Origin: a virus
Length of the DNA stretch: 44,301 nucleotides
IMG/VR virus record: IMGVR_UViG_3300033997_000053
Direction: 5' to 3' (one strand)
Both the position numbers and the translations under genes were made by a program. A model generated the notes under the pieces. The model was not told where the DNA came from. It made no database searches and saw nothing but the letters and a program-made list of their open reading frames with translations. Below, piece by piece: positions 549-44,301 of this stretch. Position 1 is the stretch's first letter, and the number at the start of each line of letters is the position of its first letter.

Positions 549-1028
549 ATGAACCATGAGTTGTTGAAAAATATATTCAAATACATCCCGGATACTGGTG
601 AACTTTTTTGGAAAGTGCGGTCTAGCCAAAGGGTTAAGATTGGAGATAAGGCTGGAACAAAAAAAGGGAATGGGTATCTTATGGTTAGGTTTGAAGGTAA
701 AAATTACCTAATACACAGACTTGCGTGGATCATGATTCATGAGTCTGAACCTGAAGGTATGATAGACCATATAAACGGGAATCGGTCAGACAACAGGATA
801 GTCAATTTAAGGATTGTGTCTTCAATAGGAAATGCACAAAATCAAAGGAATTCACACAAAGATAGCAAATCAGGCTTGTTGGGCGTGAGTGAGCATTGTG
901 GGTTGTGGGTAGCGCAGATAATGTGCGATGGTGTAATGCATAGGCTTGGATTGTTTAAAGATAAATTTGAGGCACATAATGCTTATGTTATTGCAAAGAA
1001 AAAATTGCATGAAACATCAACATTGTAA
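549..1028 (+). CDS. HNH homing endonuclease with AP2-type DNA-binding domain (159 aa)
   Basis: YLIHRLAW...IDHINGNRSDNRIVNLR (HNH core) followed by GVSEHCGLWVAQI...LGLFKDKFEAHNAY (AP2-like). The gene is visibly AT-richer than its flanks. Confidence 0.85.
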   Translation: MNHELLKNIFKYIPDTGELFWKVRSSQRVKIGDKAGTKKGNGYLMVRFEGKNYLIHRLAWIMIHESEPEGMIDHINGNRSDNRIVNLRIVSSIGNAQNQRNSHKDSKSGLLGVSEHCGLWVAQIMCDGVMHRLGLFKDKFEAHNAYVIAKKKLHETSTL

Positions 1029-1034
1029 TAAAAT
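1005..1034 (+). promoter_or_regulatory. sigma70-like promoter candidate reading into the non-coding region
   Basis: TTGCAT (1005-1010), 18-nt spacer, TAAAAT (1029-1034). The predicted start is near 1041. Confidence 0.4.
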
Positions 1035-1038
1035 GCTT

Positions 1039-1738
1039 TGATGGTTAAGGCGCACCGCAGCAATGCGCACCGCCTCACATCATGACACCCCGGAAAGACG
1101 GGGGCTATCACACATGCGGATTAATGCGCCGAAATGCGAAGGCGATAATGATGTAAGGTTGGATTCCTTATAGTCCGCAGCTGTGATGGCGTGACAGGTA
1201 CTTGCCCACCTGCAAACAGTGAAAGTCTGCTCGCAACCGCTTGTAGTGTGTTGTGAGGTGTTGGGAGCCGGGGCGAACACGGCAAGCCATATGACCACCT
1301 CGGGAAAGTAGCGAGGATCATCATTGAAGCGGCTAGAGGTTGCTCAGCACTTCCGCCACGGCGACCAGAAATGGATGGCCGCTTCAATGATGGTTAAAGT
1401 TGAGAACGGTTGAATGGCTGAGACGTTGCAAACCCTAAACGAAGCACCCAGCACCATCTGACGCCTCGGAAAGACGAGGATCATCACGAAGGTGGATTGT
1501 TTGAAAATTGCGAGGCGTCCTGCAGGTAAGTCGCATCAGTAATCCAGTCCACCCCCGTGATGGTTAAGCGACACACCGCCGATAAAGCGACACACCGCAG
1601 GGTTGGGGGAAACCTGGCCGCCATCAACCAAAATCGGCGTAGCACCCGAAGCAAACAATCCGGTTCTTCCATGCATTCCTGCCCGCCGTAAAAAGCGGGG
1701 TGCTATCAGGGTGCATGGAACAGCCGGATTTTTGTTTT
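1039..1738 (+). ncRNA. Candidate large structured non-coding RNA (about 700 nt) with three paralogous stem-loop modules; family not recognised
   Basis: No + strand ORF of 60 aa or more between 1028 and 1700. A roughly 36-nt motif occurs three times (1076-1113, 1287-1325, 1452-1487), each with a GAAAG-loop hairpin. Closing helices are 1077-1083/1148-1154, 1319-1333/1378-1392 and 1482-1488/1556-1562. TGATGGTTAA occurs at 1039, 1388 and 1558. Confidence 0.55.
1657..1738 (+). terminator. Long imperfect hairpin plus T-run; candidate intrinsic terminator closing the ncRNA
   Basis: Pairings are aatccgg 1657-1663/ccggatt 1724-1730, ttccatgca 1667-1675/tgcatggaa 1712-1720, cctg 1678-1681/cagg 1707-1710 and cccgc 1682-1686/gcggg 1695-1699. 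TTTTTGTTTT follows, ending at 1738. Confidence 0.55.
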
Positions 1739-1774
1739 GGGCGCGACAGTTTTTTAACCGTAGGAGGATGTGAG

Positions 1775-2068
1775 ATGAATGGTGGAATAGATTGGGGAAG
1801 CGCGCCAGATTGGGCAAGATGGGCAGCAAGAGATGTCAATGGATCATGGTGGTGGCACAGCCAAAGACCACATAGAACGGAACGCGAATGGCTTCCGAAA
1901 GTCGCGTCAGAAGTTTGGACAAACATCGAGCGGGCTTCTATCCGGTGCAACTTGCACTGGATGGTTTCTTTGACAAAACGACCAACAAAGGTGCTCTATG
2001 TCAAAAGCAATGGACGCGCTACATATGGCGAGCAAGCATGCATATTGCGAAAGCGGCCAGCATATTGA
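1775..2068 (+). CDS. hypothetical protein with Trp-rich N-terminus
   Basis: RBS taggagg lies upstream of ATG 1775. Product begins MNGGIDWGSAPDWARWAARDVNGSWWWH. The earlier ATGs of track ORF 1700..2068 lie inside the terminator hairpin. Confidence 0.55.
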   Translation: MNGGIDWGSAPDWARWAARDVNGSWWWHSQRPHRTEREWLPKVASEVWTNIERASIRCNLHWMVSLTKRPTKVLYVKSNGRATYGEQACILRKRPAY

Positions 2069-3195: not shown

Positions 3196-3437
3196 TGAAG
3201 CAAGAATACGCATTCCCGCAGTCGTTGCAGGCGGGTGATATGGCTCAGTCAACTGGAGGGCTCACGCTACGCGACTATTTCGCTGCGCAGGCATTGCCCG
3301 CTGTGTACGTTGAGGCATGCAAGGAAATGGACAAAACTGGATATCCAGAGCATTGGAAAAAAGGCGTGGCTTTGGATGCATACGCCATGGCCGACGCCAT
3401 GCTCGCAGAGCGCGCGAAAGGTGCGTCCAATGGTTGA
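3192..3437 (+). CDS. hypothetical protein, 81 aa
   Basis: Track ORF. Contains the GLTLRDYFAAQALPA motif common in small phage proteins. Confidence 0.6.
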   Translation: MMKQEYAFPQSLQAGDMAQSTGGLTLRDYFAAQALPAVYVEACKEMDKTGYPEHWKKGVALDAYAMADAMLAERAKGASNG

Positions 3438-3915
3438 GCTAAAAACGACCTGCGGAACTACTTTCCTTGTTGACGAAGACATTGCGGAAACGATGGGGCG
3501 CTTTGCTTGGAAGCTCGATAAGGATGGATACGTTATCCGGAAAACGACGGTTAATGGGAGGCGCGGTATGACCGTGCGATTGCATCGTGCAGTGATGTCG
3601 TGCACCGACCCAAGAGTGCTGATAGATCATCGAGACGGCAATAAGCTCAACAACATGCGCGGCAATCTTCGGGAAGCAACGCGAAGCCAGAACGGGCAAA
3701 ACGGATTTAAAAGAAAAAACAGAGCATCCGTGTTTCGCGGCGTCACTTGGCACAAAAGATGCGGGAAGTGGCAGGCCAGCATCAAGGCGTTTGGGCGGAG
3801 CATTTACCTTGGACTGTTCGATGATGAACATGAGGCCGGCCACGCCTATAACCGCGCAGCCATAGAGAGACACGGAGAGTTTGCGCGACTTAACCCTGTA
3901 GGGAGAAAGGCATGA
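3430..3915 (+). CDS. HNH endonuclease with AP2-type domain (161 aa)
   Basis: ATG 3430 in the frame of track ORF 3235..3915. Contains LHRAVM...IDHRDGNKLNNMRGNLREAT (HNH) and FRGVTWHKRCGKWQASI...LGLFDDEHEAGHAYNRAA (AP2). Confidence 0.85.
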   Translation: MVELKTTCGTTFLVDEDIAETMGRFAWKLDKDGYVIRKTTVNGRRGMTVRLHRAVMSCTDPRVLIDHRDGNKLNNMRGNLREATRSQNGQNGFKRKNRASVFRGVTWHKRCGKWQASIKAFGRSIYLGLFDDEHEAGHAYNRAAIERHGEFARLNPVGRKA

Positions 3916-5152: not shown

Positions 5153-5757
5153 TGACGCCAGAACAGCAGGAACTAGCCGACAAGCTCACCAACCTACAGC
5201 GCGGCGTAGTGCTGGGGGTGGTTGCGGGGAAGTCTCAGCGCCAGGCTTATCGTGATGCCGGGGGTAAGGCAAAGACAGACGCAAGCGCTGATGCTGTCGT
5301 CAGTGAGATGCTAAGCGACCCTAAGGTTGCTGATTTTTACCAAGTCATGATTGCAGAGGCTGCAACTGAGGCCGTGCTGACGCGAGAACAGGCCTTGGAG
5401 CGTTTAACTTTGGTTGCTAGTACCGAGATAACTGACATCCTGGAATTTCGCCAGGTGGAGGTTAAGAAGATCGGCAAGGATGGTGAGGAAGAAACCGATT
5501 GGGAAACAATCTGGAGCATGAAGGATTCGCCTGATGTTGAGCGCCGCGCCCGGGCTGCAATCAAGTCAGTGACGATGACTAAGCAAGGACCAAAGATCGA
5601 AATGTACGATTCGACCGCCGCAATTGCCCAGATTGCCAAGATGCAAGGATGGGACGCGCCGCAGAAGGTTGACCACACCAGCACGGACGGCACTATGTCG
5701 CCTTCGCGCGTTGACGAGAGTTTGGTGGCTGCTTTGGTTGATAAGCTGGTGGACTAA
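5152..5757 (+). CDS. terS: terminase small subunit
   Basis: Product begins MTPEQQELADKLTNLQRGVVLGVVAGKSQRQAYRDAGGKAKTDASADA, typical of the small-terminase N-terminal HTH region. It lies directly upstream of terL. Start 5152 (TGATG coupling) or 5140. Confidence 0.75.
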   Translation: MTPEQQELADKLTNLQRGVVLGVVAGKSQRQAYRDAGGKAKTDASADAVVSEMLSDPKVADFYQVMIAEAATEAVLTREQALERLTLVASTEITDILEFRQVEVKKIGKDGEEETDWETIWSMKDSPDVERRARAAIKSVTMTKQGPKIEMYDSTAAIAQIAKMQGWDAPQKVDHTSTDGTMSPSRVDESLVAALVDKLVD

Positions 5758-43490: not shown

Positions 43491-44301
43491 ATGGAAAAAA
43501 CTTGCACAGGATGCGTAGTGAGCGCAGCGACGTACAAGCCAGCAGAGGCTGTGCACCAGAGTCACGAGCCGCAGACGAAAAAAACTGAGGCGCTGAGTTT
43601 GGCGGATTGGTTAACCCAAGGTGGGTGGCCATCTTATGTGCCGCAGGAAGCAGCCGCCGAACTGCTCCGCCTGCATGCCGAGAACGAGGCGCTGAAGAAG
43701 CAGATGGCAGCAGCACCGCAGGCAGTGCAGGCCGCCGTGCCGGAAGCAATTGAGCAGATGGCTGTAGATAGATACAAAGTCGTTCCGTCACACGAAAGCA
43801 TGTTCCATCGCTGGGCTGTTGTTGCTGGCAACGGAACACAGCAGCTTTACATTGGGCGCGAGGGTGAATGCCAGAACATGGCTCGAAAGTTCATGGGTGC
43901 GTTCTTGGACGGCGCATTTGTGGCCATGCAAAACGCCGCCCCCGCGCACCCCGCAGAGGGAGTGCCAGCGCAGGCCGTGGCAGTGGCAGATGCGCGTTCG
44001 GCGCGCCAAATTACGGACGCAATTGTGGAAAACTTCAAAGATGCCGGATGGTATGTGCCGTCCGTCGATGAAGCGCTAGTGCTGGAGGCTGTAAGTGCCG
44101 CTATCGTTGAGCATGGCGCTAGTGAACCGCTGACTGGCGTTGCCAGTGACGTTGACTCAATGGCTCGCGTGTTGATGGCCGCTTTTTCCAAGGCGGAGCC
44201 AGAGCACCCCATTACTCGGTATCCGACAAGTTTCGTGGCTACCTTCGCTGACATGGCCCGCGCTGCCCTTGCCGCCACCCAGCCAGCAGCGCAGGGGATG
44301 G
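43491..44301 (+). CDS. 5' part of a hypothetical protein gene that runs off the window end and continues at 1..264
   Basis: aaggggga precedes ATG 43491. I translated the frame by hand to 44301 without meeting a stop. It is absent from the ORF track because no stop lies inside the window. Confidence 0.7.
   Translation, partial: MEKTCTGCVVSAATYKPAEAVHQSHEPQTKKTEALSLADWLTQGGWPSYVPQEAAAELLRLHAENEALKKQMAAAPQAVQAAVPEAIEQMAVDRYKVVPSHESMFHRWAVVAGNGTQQLYIGREGECQNMARKFMGAFLDGAFVAMQNAAPAHPAEGVPAQAVAVADARSARQITDAIVENFKDAGWYVPSVDEALVLEAVSAAIVEHGASEPLTGVASDVDSMARVLMAAFSKAEPEHPITRYPTSFVATFADMARAALAATQPAAQGM
44199..44301. repeat. Terminal direct repeat, identical to 1-103
   Basis: Direct comparison of the two window ends. 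Confidence 0.95.

Follow-up and report, generated by a model that had tools for sequence, protein, structure and literature searches.

The question raised here is what a stretch without protein-coding genes encodes at positions 1029–1774 of IMG/VR virus record IMGVR_UViG_3300033997_000053 (44,301 nt, hereafter the window), where an earlier note, made from the sequence alone, had described a coding void and proposed one large structured RNA of unrecognised family. The void itself was confirmed, as no + strand ORF of at least 60 aa lies wholly inside the region, and the − strand ORFs (40–108 aa), which had been set aside as low-complexity products, were like the short + strand ORFs in having no convincing Pfam or PHROG match. 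For the ten ORFs of both strands, Pfam searches at E up to 1 returned only two sub-threshold matches at chance level (E 0.06 with 13.5 bits, and E 0.24) and PHROG searches at E up to 0.1 returned none, so that a decayed protein gene was rejected, no frame showing homology at these thresholds. A nucleotide search of phage databases, which the earlier note had recommended, was run with BLAST against INPHARED using the region and 8 kb of the window and gave zero matches, while an exact-protein look-up of the gene downstream of the array recorded no other contig.

The region was likewise not assigned to a catalogued RNA family, as had been anticipated. No Rfam model reached its gathering threshold in the window, and a search of 400–2100 at E up to 10 yielded nothing beyond chance matches to miRNAs and lncRNAs. 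The window showed no match to the Rfam 15 models for GOLLD, ROOL, HEARO/omega RNA, group I/II introns or known ribozymes, no tRNA or tmRNA (ARAGORN, Rfam), and zero matches to STnc100/PasD (RF02076; gathering threshold 47 bits) in 400–2100 at E up to 10. When the window and 23 related or comparison loci were scanned at gathering and relaxed thresholds, nothing relevant appeared except a sub-threshold STnc100 match in P1. Several specific candidates were rejected as their defining core sequences are missing: hammerhead, HDV-like/theta, twister, pistol, hatchet and hairpin ribozymes (Rfam ribozyme models unmatched), Cas13a-type CRISPR repeats and RNA anti-CRISPRs (Rfam CRISPR models unmatched), a CsrA sponge, a preQ1-I-like pseudoknot, RNase P CR-I mimicry, DnaA boxes, and a sigma-70 promoter with TGACA as its −35 element. 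Bacterial Y RNA (YrlA), which is recognised by a GNCGAAN0-1G Ro-binding motif, a permuted tRNA-like domain and a neighbouring Ro60/TROVE gene (PMC4201824), was rejected as well, since the motif (searched by eye) and the domain are both absent and no YrlA match was obtained; the scan of neighbouring genes revealed no Ro60 either.

The region is nevertheless strongly structured. Compared with shuffled sequences, 1029–1774 folds far better, and more so as the + strand (z −9.0) than as the − strand (z −4.7), in agreement with the + strand that the earlier note had taken as the RNA strand. The long hairpin with a T-run that had been placed near 1657–1738 is real, 1648–1742 folding at −48.4 kcal/mol (z −5.2), and by sequence and fold it has the features of an intrinsic terminator, i.e., a stable GC-containing hairpin (1648–1738) directly followed by the U-run UUUUUGUUUU; a simple terminator scan missed it, which we attribute to a stem and loop beyond the limits of the tool. 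The next gene has an RBS of its own, as described before. The proposed promoter TTGCAT-N18-TAAAAT had to be abandoned: it fails a consensus scan and sits within an HNH gene, an insertion absent from the closest relative. No promoter was predicted for the array, nor any after the terminator-like hairpin.

Inside the region, the three repeats noticed earlier turned out to be composite modules (Table 1). The first part, hp1, consists of a UGAC-R 5′ flank, a 5-bp covarying stem, an invariant inner G-C pair and a GAAAGA loop on the transcribed strand, and runs directly into the second part, the long hairpin hp2 with the closing strands RCYAUCA/UGAUGGY. With the composite module defined as such a closed helix of at least 12 bp, or a two-tier helix with a 2x2 internal loop, starting 0–1 nt after hp1, all three window units are composite modules. 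The long hairpin forms domain A of a unit, and domain B is closed by the same UGAUGG strand and a downstream RCCAUCA. Other loci are referred to below by L numbers.

Table 1. Features of the RNA array and its borders (window coordinates; z, fold energy relative to shuffled sequences)
Feature	Position	Strand	Description
HNH homing-endonuclease gene	549–1028	+	PHROG 99 at 1e−59, Pfam HNH_3; insertion displacing the 5′ part of the RNA array
Truncated-unit remnant	1038–1082	+	Orphan s2 UGAUGG 1039–1044, small hairpin 1048–1075, s3 CAUCA 1078–1082
hp1 copy 1	1083–1103	+	UGAC-A, stem 1088–1092/1099–1103, loop GAAAGA; exact pattern, 43.2 bits (hp1 covariance model)
hp2 of unit 1	1104–1190	+	Outer helix 1104–1112/1182–1190, 2x2 internal loop, inner helix 1115–1121/1173–1179 (GGAUU/AGUCC); MFE z −6.3
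Domain Y	1191–1291	+	Closed by s2:s3 1186–1190/1286–1290; z +0.2
hp1 copy 2 (variant)	1292–1316	+	UGAC-CA, stem 1298–1302/1312–1316, loop GGAAAGUAG; 12.2 bits, E 0.5
hp2 of unit 2	1317–1394	+	19-bp helix 1317–1335/1376–1394; z −6.0; 97% identical to L240 529–607
Spacer or minimal domain B2	1395–1458	+	Read from sequence; z +0.5
hp1 copy 3	1459–1479	+	UGAC-G, stem 1464–1468/1475–1479; exact pattern, 40.9 bits
hp2 of unit 3	1480–1564	+	Outer helix 1480–1488/1556–1564, 2x2 internal loop, inner helix 1491–1499/1545–1553 (GGUGGAUUG/CAGUCCACC); z −4.4
Minimal domain B3	1558–1627	+	s2:s3 closure 1558–1564/1620–1626; ends in CCGCCAUCAACC; 97% identical to L240 1071–1145
Long imperfect hairpin, then UUUUUGUUUU	1648–1742	+	99% identical in L240; likely intrinsic terminator or insulator, array end
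RBS and start codon of next gene	1762–1777	+	AGGAGG 1762–1767, ATG at 1775; read from sequence; product matches PHROG 21375

The earlier description of these repeats was partly confirmed. The exact hp1 pattern, of which 0.05 occurrences are expected by chance in the window, is found in the first and third copies, whereas the second is a variant, identical in form to copies in 9 IMG/VR stretches including the L240 contig. The compensatory stem change is present (CCCCG/CGGGG in one copy, CCUCG/CGAGG in the other two), as are TGATGGTTAA at 1039, 1388 and 1558 and the short local duplications. Among the helices proposed between ATCATCA and TGATG arms, 1319–1333/1378–1392 and 1482–1488/1556–1562 exist and even extend to 19 and 9 bp, respectively, but the one assigned to the first copy, 1077–1083/1148–1154, though complementary, crosses the family-conserved two-tier helix of unit 1 that both the MFE and the homologues favour, and is superseded by it. 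The small helix 1195–1199/1208–1212 was strengthened by two compensatory pairs across three other phages, while for the alternative pairing 1461–1468/1511–1518 the complementarity exists but comparative support does not.

Comparison with other phages adds detail to the individual parts. The hp2 modules all fold well individually (z values in Table 1) and their interiors in the window are simple hairpins that lack both a T-arm and a D-arm. The two-tier hp2 of unit 1, its inner stem covarying, is also found in L010, L033, L036, L043, L058 and L100; the hp2 arms of unit 2 surround a different, longer interior in L365, and the hp2 of unit 3 has homologues in other loci. The single-sequence fold signal is not significant in domains Y and B2. 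Domain Y is composed of the hairpin 1195–1199/1208–1212, a GUGAAAGUC loop (1218–1226) and a hairpin GCCG-GGGCGAACA-CGGC (1267–1283), has homologues in a Delftia genome contig (L229), L363 and L365 (93.7% identity), and shows compensatory changes at five predicted pairs. No homologue was found for B2 (1395–1458), which ends in the s3 strand CACCAUC (1452–1458), able to pair with s2 at 1389–1395. The end of B3, CCGCCAUCAAC, is shared with L010. The remnant at the 5′ border folds locally at −17.2 kcal/mol (z −2.5), and the s2 strand orphaned in it closes an intact hp2 in L240.

The arrangement of the modules in close relatives shows how the array is built. Searches with the flanking proteins retrieved one viral contig each, L239 through the downstream gene and L240 through the upstream gene, and a metagenome scan returned the L240 contig again. 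The HNH gene is not present in L240, whose positions 527–853 it replaces in the window; it was inserted at a module border and truncated one module of the window. In the closest relatives, L240 and L365, the modules recur in another order and number with further domains slotted in; relatives that differ in this way are 94–99% identical. A permuted, two-piece tmRNA lies in the same locus of L240, and among the close relatives the reordered modules are accompanied by tRNA-like inserts and STnc100/PasD-like domains in addition to this permuted tmRNA. Elsewhere, the closing helices enclose a tRNA-like domain in L052 (Rfam tRNA, 48 bits) and also in L084, L023 and L065, or an STnc100-like domain in L229 and L240. 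Some tRNA-like inserts have defective anticodon loops.

Since relatives reorder the modules and each window module recurs singly in unrelated phages, the region is best described as an array of independently folding units, and the interpretation given in the earlier note is only partly supported: a non-coding + strand RNA with three paralogous modules and no Rfam family stands, a single GOLLD/ROOL-type fold with global closure does not. The long-range closure 1038–1044/1621–1627 is not conserved, its 3′ strand having been orphaned from the module that the HNH gene truncated. One ornate RNA of ~600–700 nt, possibly multimeric and using the s1/s2/s3 strands and the GAAAGA loops for long-range or intermolecular contacts, would suit the very stable fold of the whole region and the repeated complementary strands, which could form intra- or intermolecular helices, and complementary hairpin loops in a companion domain (domain X, see below) hint at kissing contacts. 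We consider it improbable, however, given the variable order and number of modules among relatives of 94–99% identity, their solitary occurrence elsewhere, the orphaned closure strand, and the lack of any GOLLD, ROOL, HEARO or intron match in Rfam even at E up to 10.

The hp1 hairpin extends far beyond this phage. It recurs in hundreds of unrelated phages: the exact 18-base pattern is carried by at least 120 IMG/VR contigs and by at least 116 stretches of bacterial genomes belonging to many phyla, and well over 200 phage or prophage contexts were recorded in Proteobacteria, Bacteroidota, Bacillota, Cyanobacteria, Patescibacteria and others, with Xanthomonas phage FoX2 and Stenotrophomonas phage BUCT708 among the carriers. 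Further culturable carriers are FoX5, BUCT709 and Delftia/Comamonadaceae lysogens such as D. acidovorans MMO-42. About 6 copies lie at the BUCT708 locus, most loci having one. The covariance model did not find hp1 in HK620, P1 or mEp460, no Rfam match overlapped the motif in 17 related loci, and a literature search with hp1 sequence strings returned luciferase-type primers only. Across 122 model matches, double changes affect 4/5 stem pairs and 99.7% of cells are paired; on four of the five measures the observed value was matched by none of 500 shuffles, and on the fifth (pairs changed on both sides) by a single one (1/500). At the free stem pair U-G outnumbers C-A (15 vs. 3), and the hp2 helices associated with hp1 contain 662 Watson–Crick, 74 G-U and 9 A-C pairs. 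The covariation of the stem and this excess of G-U over A-C identify the + strand as the RNA strand. The loop GGAAAGAC and the upstream GAC show extreme sequence conservation. We conclude that hp1 is a very widespread family of phage RNA motifs that is uncatalogued (absent from Rfam 15).

The position of hp1 is equally consistent. In 22 contexts it precedes the mature 5′ end of a tRNA by 2–9 nt, mostly 5–6 nt (mode 6), the tRNAs having at least nine identities (Thr, Val, Arg, Met, His, Gly, Asn, Phe, Glu) and always the orientation of hp1. In about 20% of contexts it abuts a helix of 13–24 bp, and a helix of ≥14 bp starts 0–1 nt 3′ of hp1 in 38/211 contexts vs. 18/4220 random anchors (42-fold enrichment). 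With respect to ORFs, 32 hp1 copies lie within 60 nt upstream of a start and only 14/173 within 60 nt downstream of an end; the element is thus of leader type and not of 3′-UTR type. A role as a general 3′-UTR or terminator element was rejected, with a T-run in only 21/210 contexts and few copies just past a stop codon. The genes that follow hp1 are of diverse kinds and offer no hint at its function, and HNH genes often lie nearby.

A DNA-level element, such as a recombination or homing site, an origin or a packaging signal formed by the CCATCA/TGATGG repeats and the palindrome, could be imagined from the short direct and inverted repeats, the shuffling of modules between relatives and the HNH genes, one inserted at a module border and others often near hp1. 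The asymmetry of G-U over A-C in both hp1 and hp2 is expected only for RNA on the + strand and argues against it, as do the invariable orientation with adjacent tRNAs and the free covariation of the helices, which is unlike protein-binding sites, and we regard this explanation as very improbable.

A companion, domain X, connects these loci with a known RNA. It combines a covarying P1 with a GAAU junction and with two hairpins, one 5′ and one 3′, whose loops are complementary, was found in >120 IMG/VR contigs, and lies within or beside hp2 in L240 and L229; its hallmark sequences were not seen in 1029–1774. A copy in phage P1 scores 33 bits against RF02076 and canonical X sequences stay below the Rfam threshold; domain X is a relative of the prophage sRNA family STnc100/PasD. 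Its loops GCUGAU/AUCAGC become GUGC/GCAC in the STnc100 consensus, a change that, in this one between-family comparison, suggests tertiary or kissing contacts. The enteric counterparts are situated in the late leader of HK620, between pR′/qut and the late terminator, and in the ban/tRNA operon of P1, where tRNAs, a tRNA-like hairpin and X domains share one operon.

The modules are, in summary, real, covarying and strand-specific RNA structures that recur independently in hundreds of phages and are shuffled between close relatives, and elsewhere they fill the position of tRNAs, tRNA-like domains, tmRNA or STnc100/PasD-type sRNA domains. Our preferred reading, to which we give a probability of roughly 0.45, is that 1029–1774 is a phage stable-RNA island, a precursor from which cleavage would release stable small RNAs, hp1 serving as leader or punctuation. 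The island would be an untranslated segment of a + strand transcript, with three units in tandem (at least four originally) ahead of the terminator-like hairpin that ends it. Transcribed as one long precursor, it would be cut between modules by host RNases, with candidate RNase III-type cuts at the 13–24-bp closing helices and RNase P/E-type cuts beside hp1, and the products would be several stable small hairpin RNAs. In such a scheme hp1 may mark and protect the 5′ side of each unit, which would explain its closeness to whatever follows (0–1 nt to a helix, 5–6 nt to a tRNA and, judged by eye, about 10–25 nt to an RBS). The stable-RNA island fits less well with the weak enrichment of a hairpin abutting UGAC on the 5′ side (31% vs. 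21%), with the missing promoter prediction and with the lack of a fold signal in Y and B2, and it leaves the three-strand competition of s1/s2/s3 unexplained. Furthermore, the conservation of the hp1 loop and GAC exceeds the needs of a protective hairpin and implies a specific partner.

A different explanation is an antitermination or anti-Rho leader, in which hp1 would act like boxB or put by binding RNA polymerase, a Nus factor or a small phage protein and allow read-through of the untranslated structured RNA and the 1648–1742 hairpin into packaging and structural genes. We hold this proposal to be unlikely. With lambda nutR as reference, hp1 resembles boxB in its 5-bp GC stem, its purine-rich GNRA-like loop and its C/A-rich, G-poor 3′ flank (AUCAUCAC or AUCAAC); it occupies a leader position ahead of ORFs, tRNAs and ncRNAs; several hp1-like hairpins are interleaved with terminator-like sequences in the early leader of BUCT708 (by eye); a terminator-like hairpin with no promoter predicted after it separates the array from co-oriented genes; and the HK620 companion domain lies between pR′/qut and the late terminator. 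No boxA-like sequence is found upstream, however, the flank being UGAC preceded by unconserved sequence, and antitermination offers no role for the fixed 5–6-nt gap between hp1 and tRNA 5′ ends. A scan of 38 window genes turned up no N- or Q-like PHROG, weak evidence as N proteins are small and poorly conserved, but a phage-specific N partner is also unlikely because the hosts of hp1 span many phyla. As for HK022 put, a ~70-nt two-hairpin RNA for which ten sequences were aligned (PMC9378689), hp1 with its about 30 nt is far smaller, and identity with put was rejected on account of this size difference and because that study gives no indication of homologues other than those ten sequences.

Somewhat less likely still, hp1 might be a universal, phage-borne control element for elongation or 5′ maturation that is read directly by machinery common to all bacteria, such as RNase P or RNA polymerase (alone or together with NusA), with s1/s2/s3 as a built-in conformational switch setting the order of folding and cleavage. 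It would then constitute a minimal pan-phylum 'put-like' or leader signal placed ahead of tRNAs, sRNAs and genes. In a decoy or sponge array, comparable to CsrB/RsmZ, tRNA-mimic decoys or RNA anti-defence, the GGAAAGA loops would sequester a host or phage RNA-binding protein or nuclease. We find little reason to expect this, about as little as for the single ornate RNA. Several hp1 copies per locus (3 in the window, about 6 in BUCT708), the GGA in the invariant loop, the identity of the loop octamer with an RBS context (GGAAAGACC-AUG) in BUCT708 and the defective anticodon loops of tRNA-like inserts are compatible with a decoy, but the copy density is below that of known sponges, most loci have a single hp1, no candidate partner was found, and the loop is devoid of the A(N)GGA context typical of CsrA sites. 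To our knowledge, some of the host phyla have no CsrA.

Phage non-coding RNA is poorly charted, and with hp1 a ~30-nt hairpin with an invariant loop new to Rfam 15 is added. Under a simple grammar of exchangeable modules, tRNA arrays, tRNA mimics and tmRNA come together with the STnc100/PasD prophage sRNAs of pathogenic E. coli as one kind of locus. For annotation, this means that many 'hypothetical proteins' drawn over such regions, e.g., P1 plp/upl, are probably RNA. If hp1 were a processing or elongation signal for a universal host machine, it would reveal a general rule of phage gene expression and offer a compact, portable part for RNA engineering.

Among known systems, GOLLD, ROOL and HEARO are likewise phage-borne RNAs of several hundred nt often found near tRNAs, but share no Rfam model similarity with the array, which is modular and shuffled and not one conserved fold. 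Like lambda nut and HK022 put, hp1 lies in an untranslated leader ahead of terminators and forms a small, GC-rich hairpin whose loop is rich in purines and whose flank is rich in C and A; hp1 and boxB both have a 5-bp stem, but the hp1 hexaloop GAAAGA with its invariant G-C closing pair differs from the GNRA-like pentaloop of boxB, its UGAC flank is not boxA, no N protein was found, and it is spread across phyla. The closing helices, long, flanking and enclosing structured RNA (13–24 bp, some with a central internal loop), may be likened to the processing stems of rRNA operons and the RNase III sites of T7, except that in the array one strand is shared between neighbouring domains. The STnc100/PasD family matches domain X in model architecture, and both are phage-borne, untranslated and located in late-leader or tRNA regions, whereas the window has no X domain and the STnc100 model includes neither hp1 nor hp2. 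Finally, phage tRNA arrays, tRNA-like RNAs and tmRNA islands differ from the window, which has no tRNA or tmRNA and whose hp2 interiors are simple hairpins, but they share its grammar elsewhere: hp1 stands at a fixed distance before bona fide tRNAs, hp2 can enclose tRNA-like domains, the L240 locus holds a two-piece tmRNA, and an operon of P1 combines tRNAs with X domains.

The + strand of region 1029-1774 is void of genes, as the earlier note had stated: in the ORF listing and on reading positions 1-2400, no ORF of at least 60 aa lay wholly within it, the GTG-1700 ORF being a mere upstream extension of the next gene, which starts at ATG 1775 behind its own RBS (AGGAGG, 1762-1767). Neither the - strand ORFs (40-108 aa) nor the short + strand ORFs matched a protein family convincingly: Pfam (E up to 1) returned just two sub-threshold matches and PHROG (E up to 0.1) none. 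The suggested comparison with Rfam 15 was run and the region matches no family: the whole window gave no match at gathering thresholds, relaxing the cut-off to E up to 10 for positions 400-2100 brought up nothing beyond chance similarity to miRNAs and lncRNAs, and ARAGORN found neither tRNA nor tmRNA in the window. The minimum free energy of the region was -312.6 kcal/mol (z -9.0) on the + strand and -284.7 kcal/mol (z -4.7) on the - strand. The feature is real and had mostly been described correctly, with the ORF void and the listed repeats and inverted repeats present; the exceptions are the copy-1 helix 1077-1083/1148-1154, which clashes with the pairing favoured by the MFE fold and by homologues (1104-1112/1182-1190 plus 1115-1121/1173-1179), and the promoter proposed for the array, which fails a consensus scan.

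The repeats contain a small hairpin (hp1), whose core TGACNCCNCGGAAAGACGNGG (18 fixed bases) was used as search string and matched at least 120 IMG/VR contigs as well as 116 stretches in one-genome-per-species GTDB (Burkholderiales, Xanthomonadales, Bacteroidales, Clostridia, cyanobacteria, Patescibacteria, and others); about 17 matches would be expected by chance in 596 Gb of genomes (uniform-composition estimate). At the unconstrained stem pair, 213 unique contexts carried C-G (122), U-A (53), U-G (15), G-C (8), A-U (6), or C-A (only 3). A covariance model built from 52 contexts placed hp1 in the window at 1077-1109 (43 bits), 1453-1485 (41 bits), and, weakly, the variant site 1286-1322 (12 bits), with no copy beyond these, and over 97 loci it recovered 22 further copies outside the search pattern. 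The stems of these 22 vary everywhere save the inner G-C pair (e.g., GCCCG/CGGGC, CUUUG/CAAAG, UAUCG/CGAUA), while neither GGAAAGAC in the loop nor the GAC upstream changes much. Among 122 model matches, double changes occurred in four of the five pairs and 99.7% of cells were paired; in 500 shuffles the observed value was never reached on four of five measures, and was reached once on the remaining one, the number of pairs with both sides changed. hp1 is therefore an RNA structure under selection on the + strand. This signature of the array seems to be both uncatalogued and unusually widely distributed.

Across all loci, ARAGORN placed the hp1 end 2-9 nt (mode 6) 5' of the mature tRNA 5' end on the same strand in 22 unique contexts; the phages are obviously unrelated, and the tRNAs are those for Thr, Val, Arg, Met, His, Gly, Asn, Phe, and Glu. 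The 6-nt spacer is often palindromic (GCAUGC, AGAUCU, GUGCAC, AUGCAU; L016, L042, L070, L086, L154, and others). A helix of at least 14 bp began 0-1 nt past hp1 (38/211 contexts vs. 18/4220 random anchors); the helices of this long hairpin (hp2) measure 13-24 bp and hold 74 G-U pairs vs. 9 A-C mismatches, a second indication of + strand RNA. Of the remaining contexts, 20 had an ORF with its RBS no more than 60 nt away, 21 had a T-run, and 104 were unclassified. Since hp1 is rare within 60 nt after a stop codon (14/173) and commoner within 60 nt before a start codon (32), it behaves as a leader element by position. The downstream genes are mixed (helicases, polymerases, several HNH endonucleases). 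Cultured carriers are the Xanthomonas phages FoX2 and FoX5 and the Stenotrophomonas phages BUCT708 and BUCT709, each with a gene-free region of ~700 nt bearing hp1-like hairpins, which in FoX2 additionally holds a tRNA-like domain and tRNA-Leu. The 700-nt early leader of BUCT708 (L238 2490-3190) has about six hp1-like hairpins and two real-looking translation starts, GGAAAGACCAAUG, containing the hp1-loop octamer.

The hp2 that follows hp1 is closed by strand s1 (RCYAUCA) paired with s2 (UGAUGGY) around a variable interior, which may be a plain hairpin (seen in the window), a stem in two tiers that carries a 2x2 loop and GGAUUG/CAGUCC (units 1 and 3 of the window, L010, L033, L036, L043, L058, L100), a tRNA-like domain (L052, L084, L023, L065), or a conserved domain X (L229, L240). 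The tRNA-like domain of L052 scores 48 bits against Rfam tRNA, yet has a 2-nt "anticodon loop". Strand s2 can also pair with a downstream s3 (RCCAUCA(AC)), often just 5' of the next hp1, closing a second domain; as the two helices overlap by 5-6 nt of s2, they are never complete simultaneously. All three strands change jointly among phages (AUCA/UGAU/AUCA vs. AACA/UGUU/AACA). One second domain of the window, Y, recurs in L229 (a genome contig of Delftia acidovorans), L363, and L365 (93.7% identity), with compensatory changes in three helices (AGGU/ACCU, AGGC/GCCU and CGGU/ACCG, and the stem below the GUGAAAGUC loop). Downstream of the arrays of L229 (~5300-5345), L363, L365, L368, and L371, a hairpin GCCUGGG...CCCAGGC with a CU-rich, anti-Shine-Dalgarno-like loop UCCUCCUCCCUCCC is conserved, followed by apparent intrinsic terminators; it is absent from the window.

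Second domains of the array and landmark genes in the window
Feature	Position	Strand
Second domain: small hairpin	1045-1077	+
Second domain: conserved Y domain	1191-1291	+
Second domain: spacer	1395-1451	+
Second domain: minimal domain	1565-1619	+
terS/terL	5.1-7.3 kb	
Endolysin	26.2 kb	
DnaB	33.4-34.8 kb	-
RecT/exonuclease	39.8-42 kb	

The closest relatives show how the array is assembled. The flanking genes of L240 are 96-99% identical to those of the window, but in place of the window HNH gene 549-1028 L240 has an additional unit (L240 527-853); relative to L240, the HNH gene is an insertion or replacement, with which one RNA unit and, of another, the 5' half were lost; TGATGGTTAAGG (1038-1049) is the 3' strand left from a module that lacks its 5' part. 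Another HNH+AP2 gene is located at 3235-3915. Shared modules are ordered differently in L240, where one hp2 contains X and a tmRNA gene of the permuted, two-piece type (tag AKAAASAKAEVAAFA; L240 1176-1577; ARAGORN), which the window lacks, stands between array and terminal hairpin. L365 and the window share Y, the variant form of hp1, and the second hp2's arms, but in L365 these enclose a different interior and an X-like domain follows. Given these swaps, the long-range closure proposed previously is a side effect of arms that can be exchanged, and what the region forms is a cassette array, not one fold; structured + strand RNA of an unrecognised family holds as a description, whereas one large ornate RNA does not, the modules being reordered in relatives. 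The nearest RNA-module relatives (window 1181-1333 vs. L229, Delftia acidovorans MMO-42) are Burkholderiales genome contigs, suggesting that the phage host is probably a member of Comamonadaceae or another Burkholderiales bacterium. Loci with both hp1 and X were seen in Roseateles, Comamonas, Achromobacter, and Polynucleobacter.

The last 103 nt (44199-44301) are identical to the first (1-103), which makes the window a complete genome of ~44.2 kb, assembled as a circle; an ORF of ~323 aa spans the circular junction into 1-264. Past the array, the small ORFs 1775-2068 and 1998-2228 overlap by 71 nt, and the relative L239 matches the former at residues 1-73 only, so the 3' end of this ORF may be wrongly set or carry a frameshift.

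In many phages, X is the second domain closed by s2:s3. It comprises a P1 helix, GAAUGCGCA[GGCUGA]UGCGC, a variable stretch, and GCCGG[AGAUCAGCA]CCGGC, with both hairpin loops mutually complementary. An independent fetch by its 5' motif returned at least 120 IMG/VR contigs, in which P1, anchored by sequence rather than complementarity, was 88% paired vs. 60% in shuffles (reached by 0/500), and several of its positions took all four Watson-Crick pair types. X was present in 179 GenBank phage records, including mEp460 (after the repressor gene), Stx2 phages, HK620 (between pR'/qut and the late terminator tQ), P1, and T1-like and Vi1-like Klebsiella phages; the hp1 model found no hp1 in the enteric carriers HK620, P1, and mEp460. 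The HK620 late leader from pR'/qut to tQ (~650 nt) has, at L361 1915-2110, a ACAACAGGUAAGAGC...GCUCUUUCC hairpin and then an STnc100-like X, in the same s1/hairpin/s2/X/s3 grammar as elsewhere, but here lacking hp1. Phage P1 carries X in the ban operon, after tRNA-Asn, tRNA-Thr, and a tRNA-like hairpin, beneath the minus-strand "plp/upl" CDSs. Opposite these two, the plus strand (L359 2198-2895) holds structured RNA, namely the tRNA-like hairpin that follows tRNA-Thr plus two STnc100-like domains; both CDSs are probably misannotated. The second, divergent X of phage P1 scored 33 bits against Rfam STnc100 (gathering score 47) and aligns with it in the common P1/GAAU/two-hairpin layout; the STnc100-type loop pair GUGC/GCAC replaces the GCUGAU/AUCAGC of X, so the loops covary. 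STnc100 and PasD are related prophage sRNAs, and PasD adjoins Q and was recovered by Hfq RIL-seq.

The modules are thus independent, covarying + strand RNAs, interchangeable with tRNA, tRNA-like, tmRNA, and sRNA domains, and the array ends in a terminator-like hairpin. We infer, as the most likely reading (probability about 0.45), a polycistronic non-coding precursor from which stable small RNAs are cut: at 13-24 bp the closing helices are as long as RNase III substrates, the single-stranded gap ahead of tRNAs, a constant 5-6 nt, suits RNase P access, and hp1 sits as near as possible to the next element, as expected of a 5' protective or marking hairpin. The main rival, which we hold to be rather unlikely, is a boxB/put-like antitermination or anti-Rho leader for read-through of the untranslated RNA and the hairpin at 1648-1742; gene scans of the window yielded neither a Q-like nor an N-like protein, and promoter scans yielded none for the array. 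Precursor processing and antitermination are mutually compatible, and the invariant hp1 loop and GAC flank demand a specific partner. Region 1029-1774 is a phage stable-RNA/sRNA island, a known kind of locus, and its location on the + strand between early/recombination and packaging genes matches the place of Q, pR', and the late leader in lambdoid phages.
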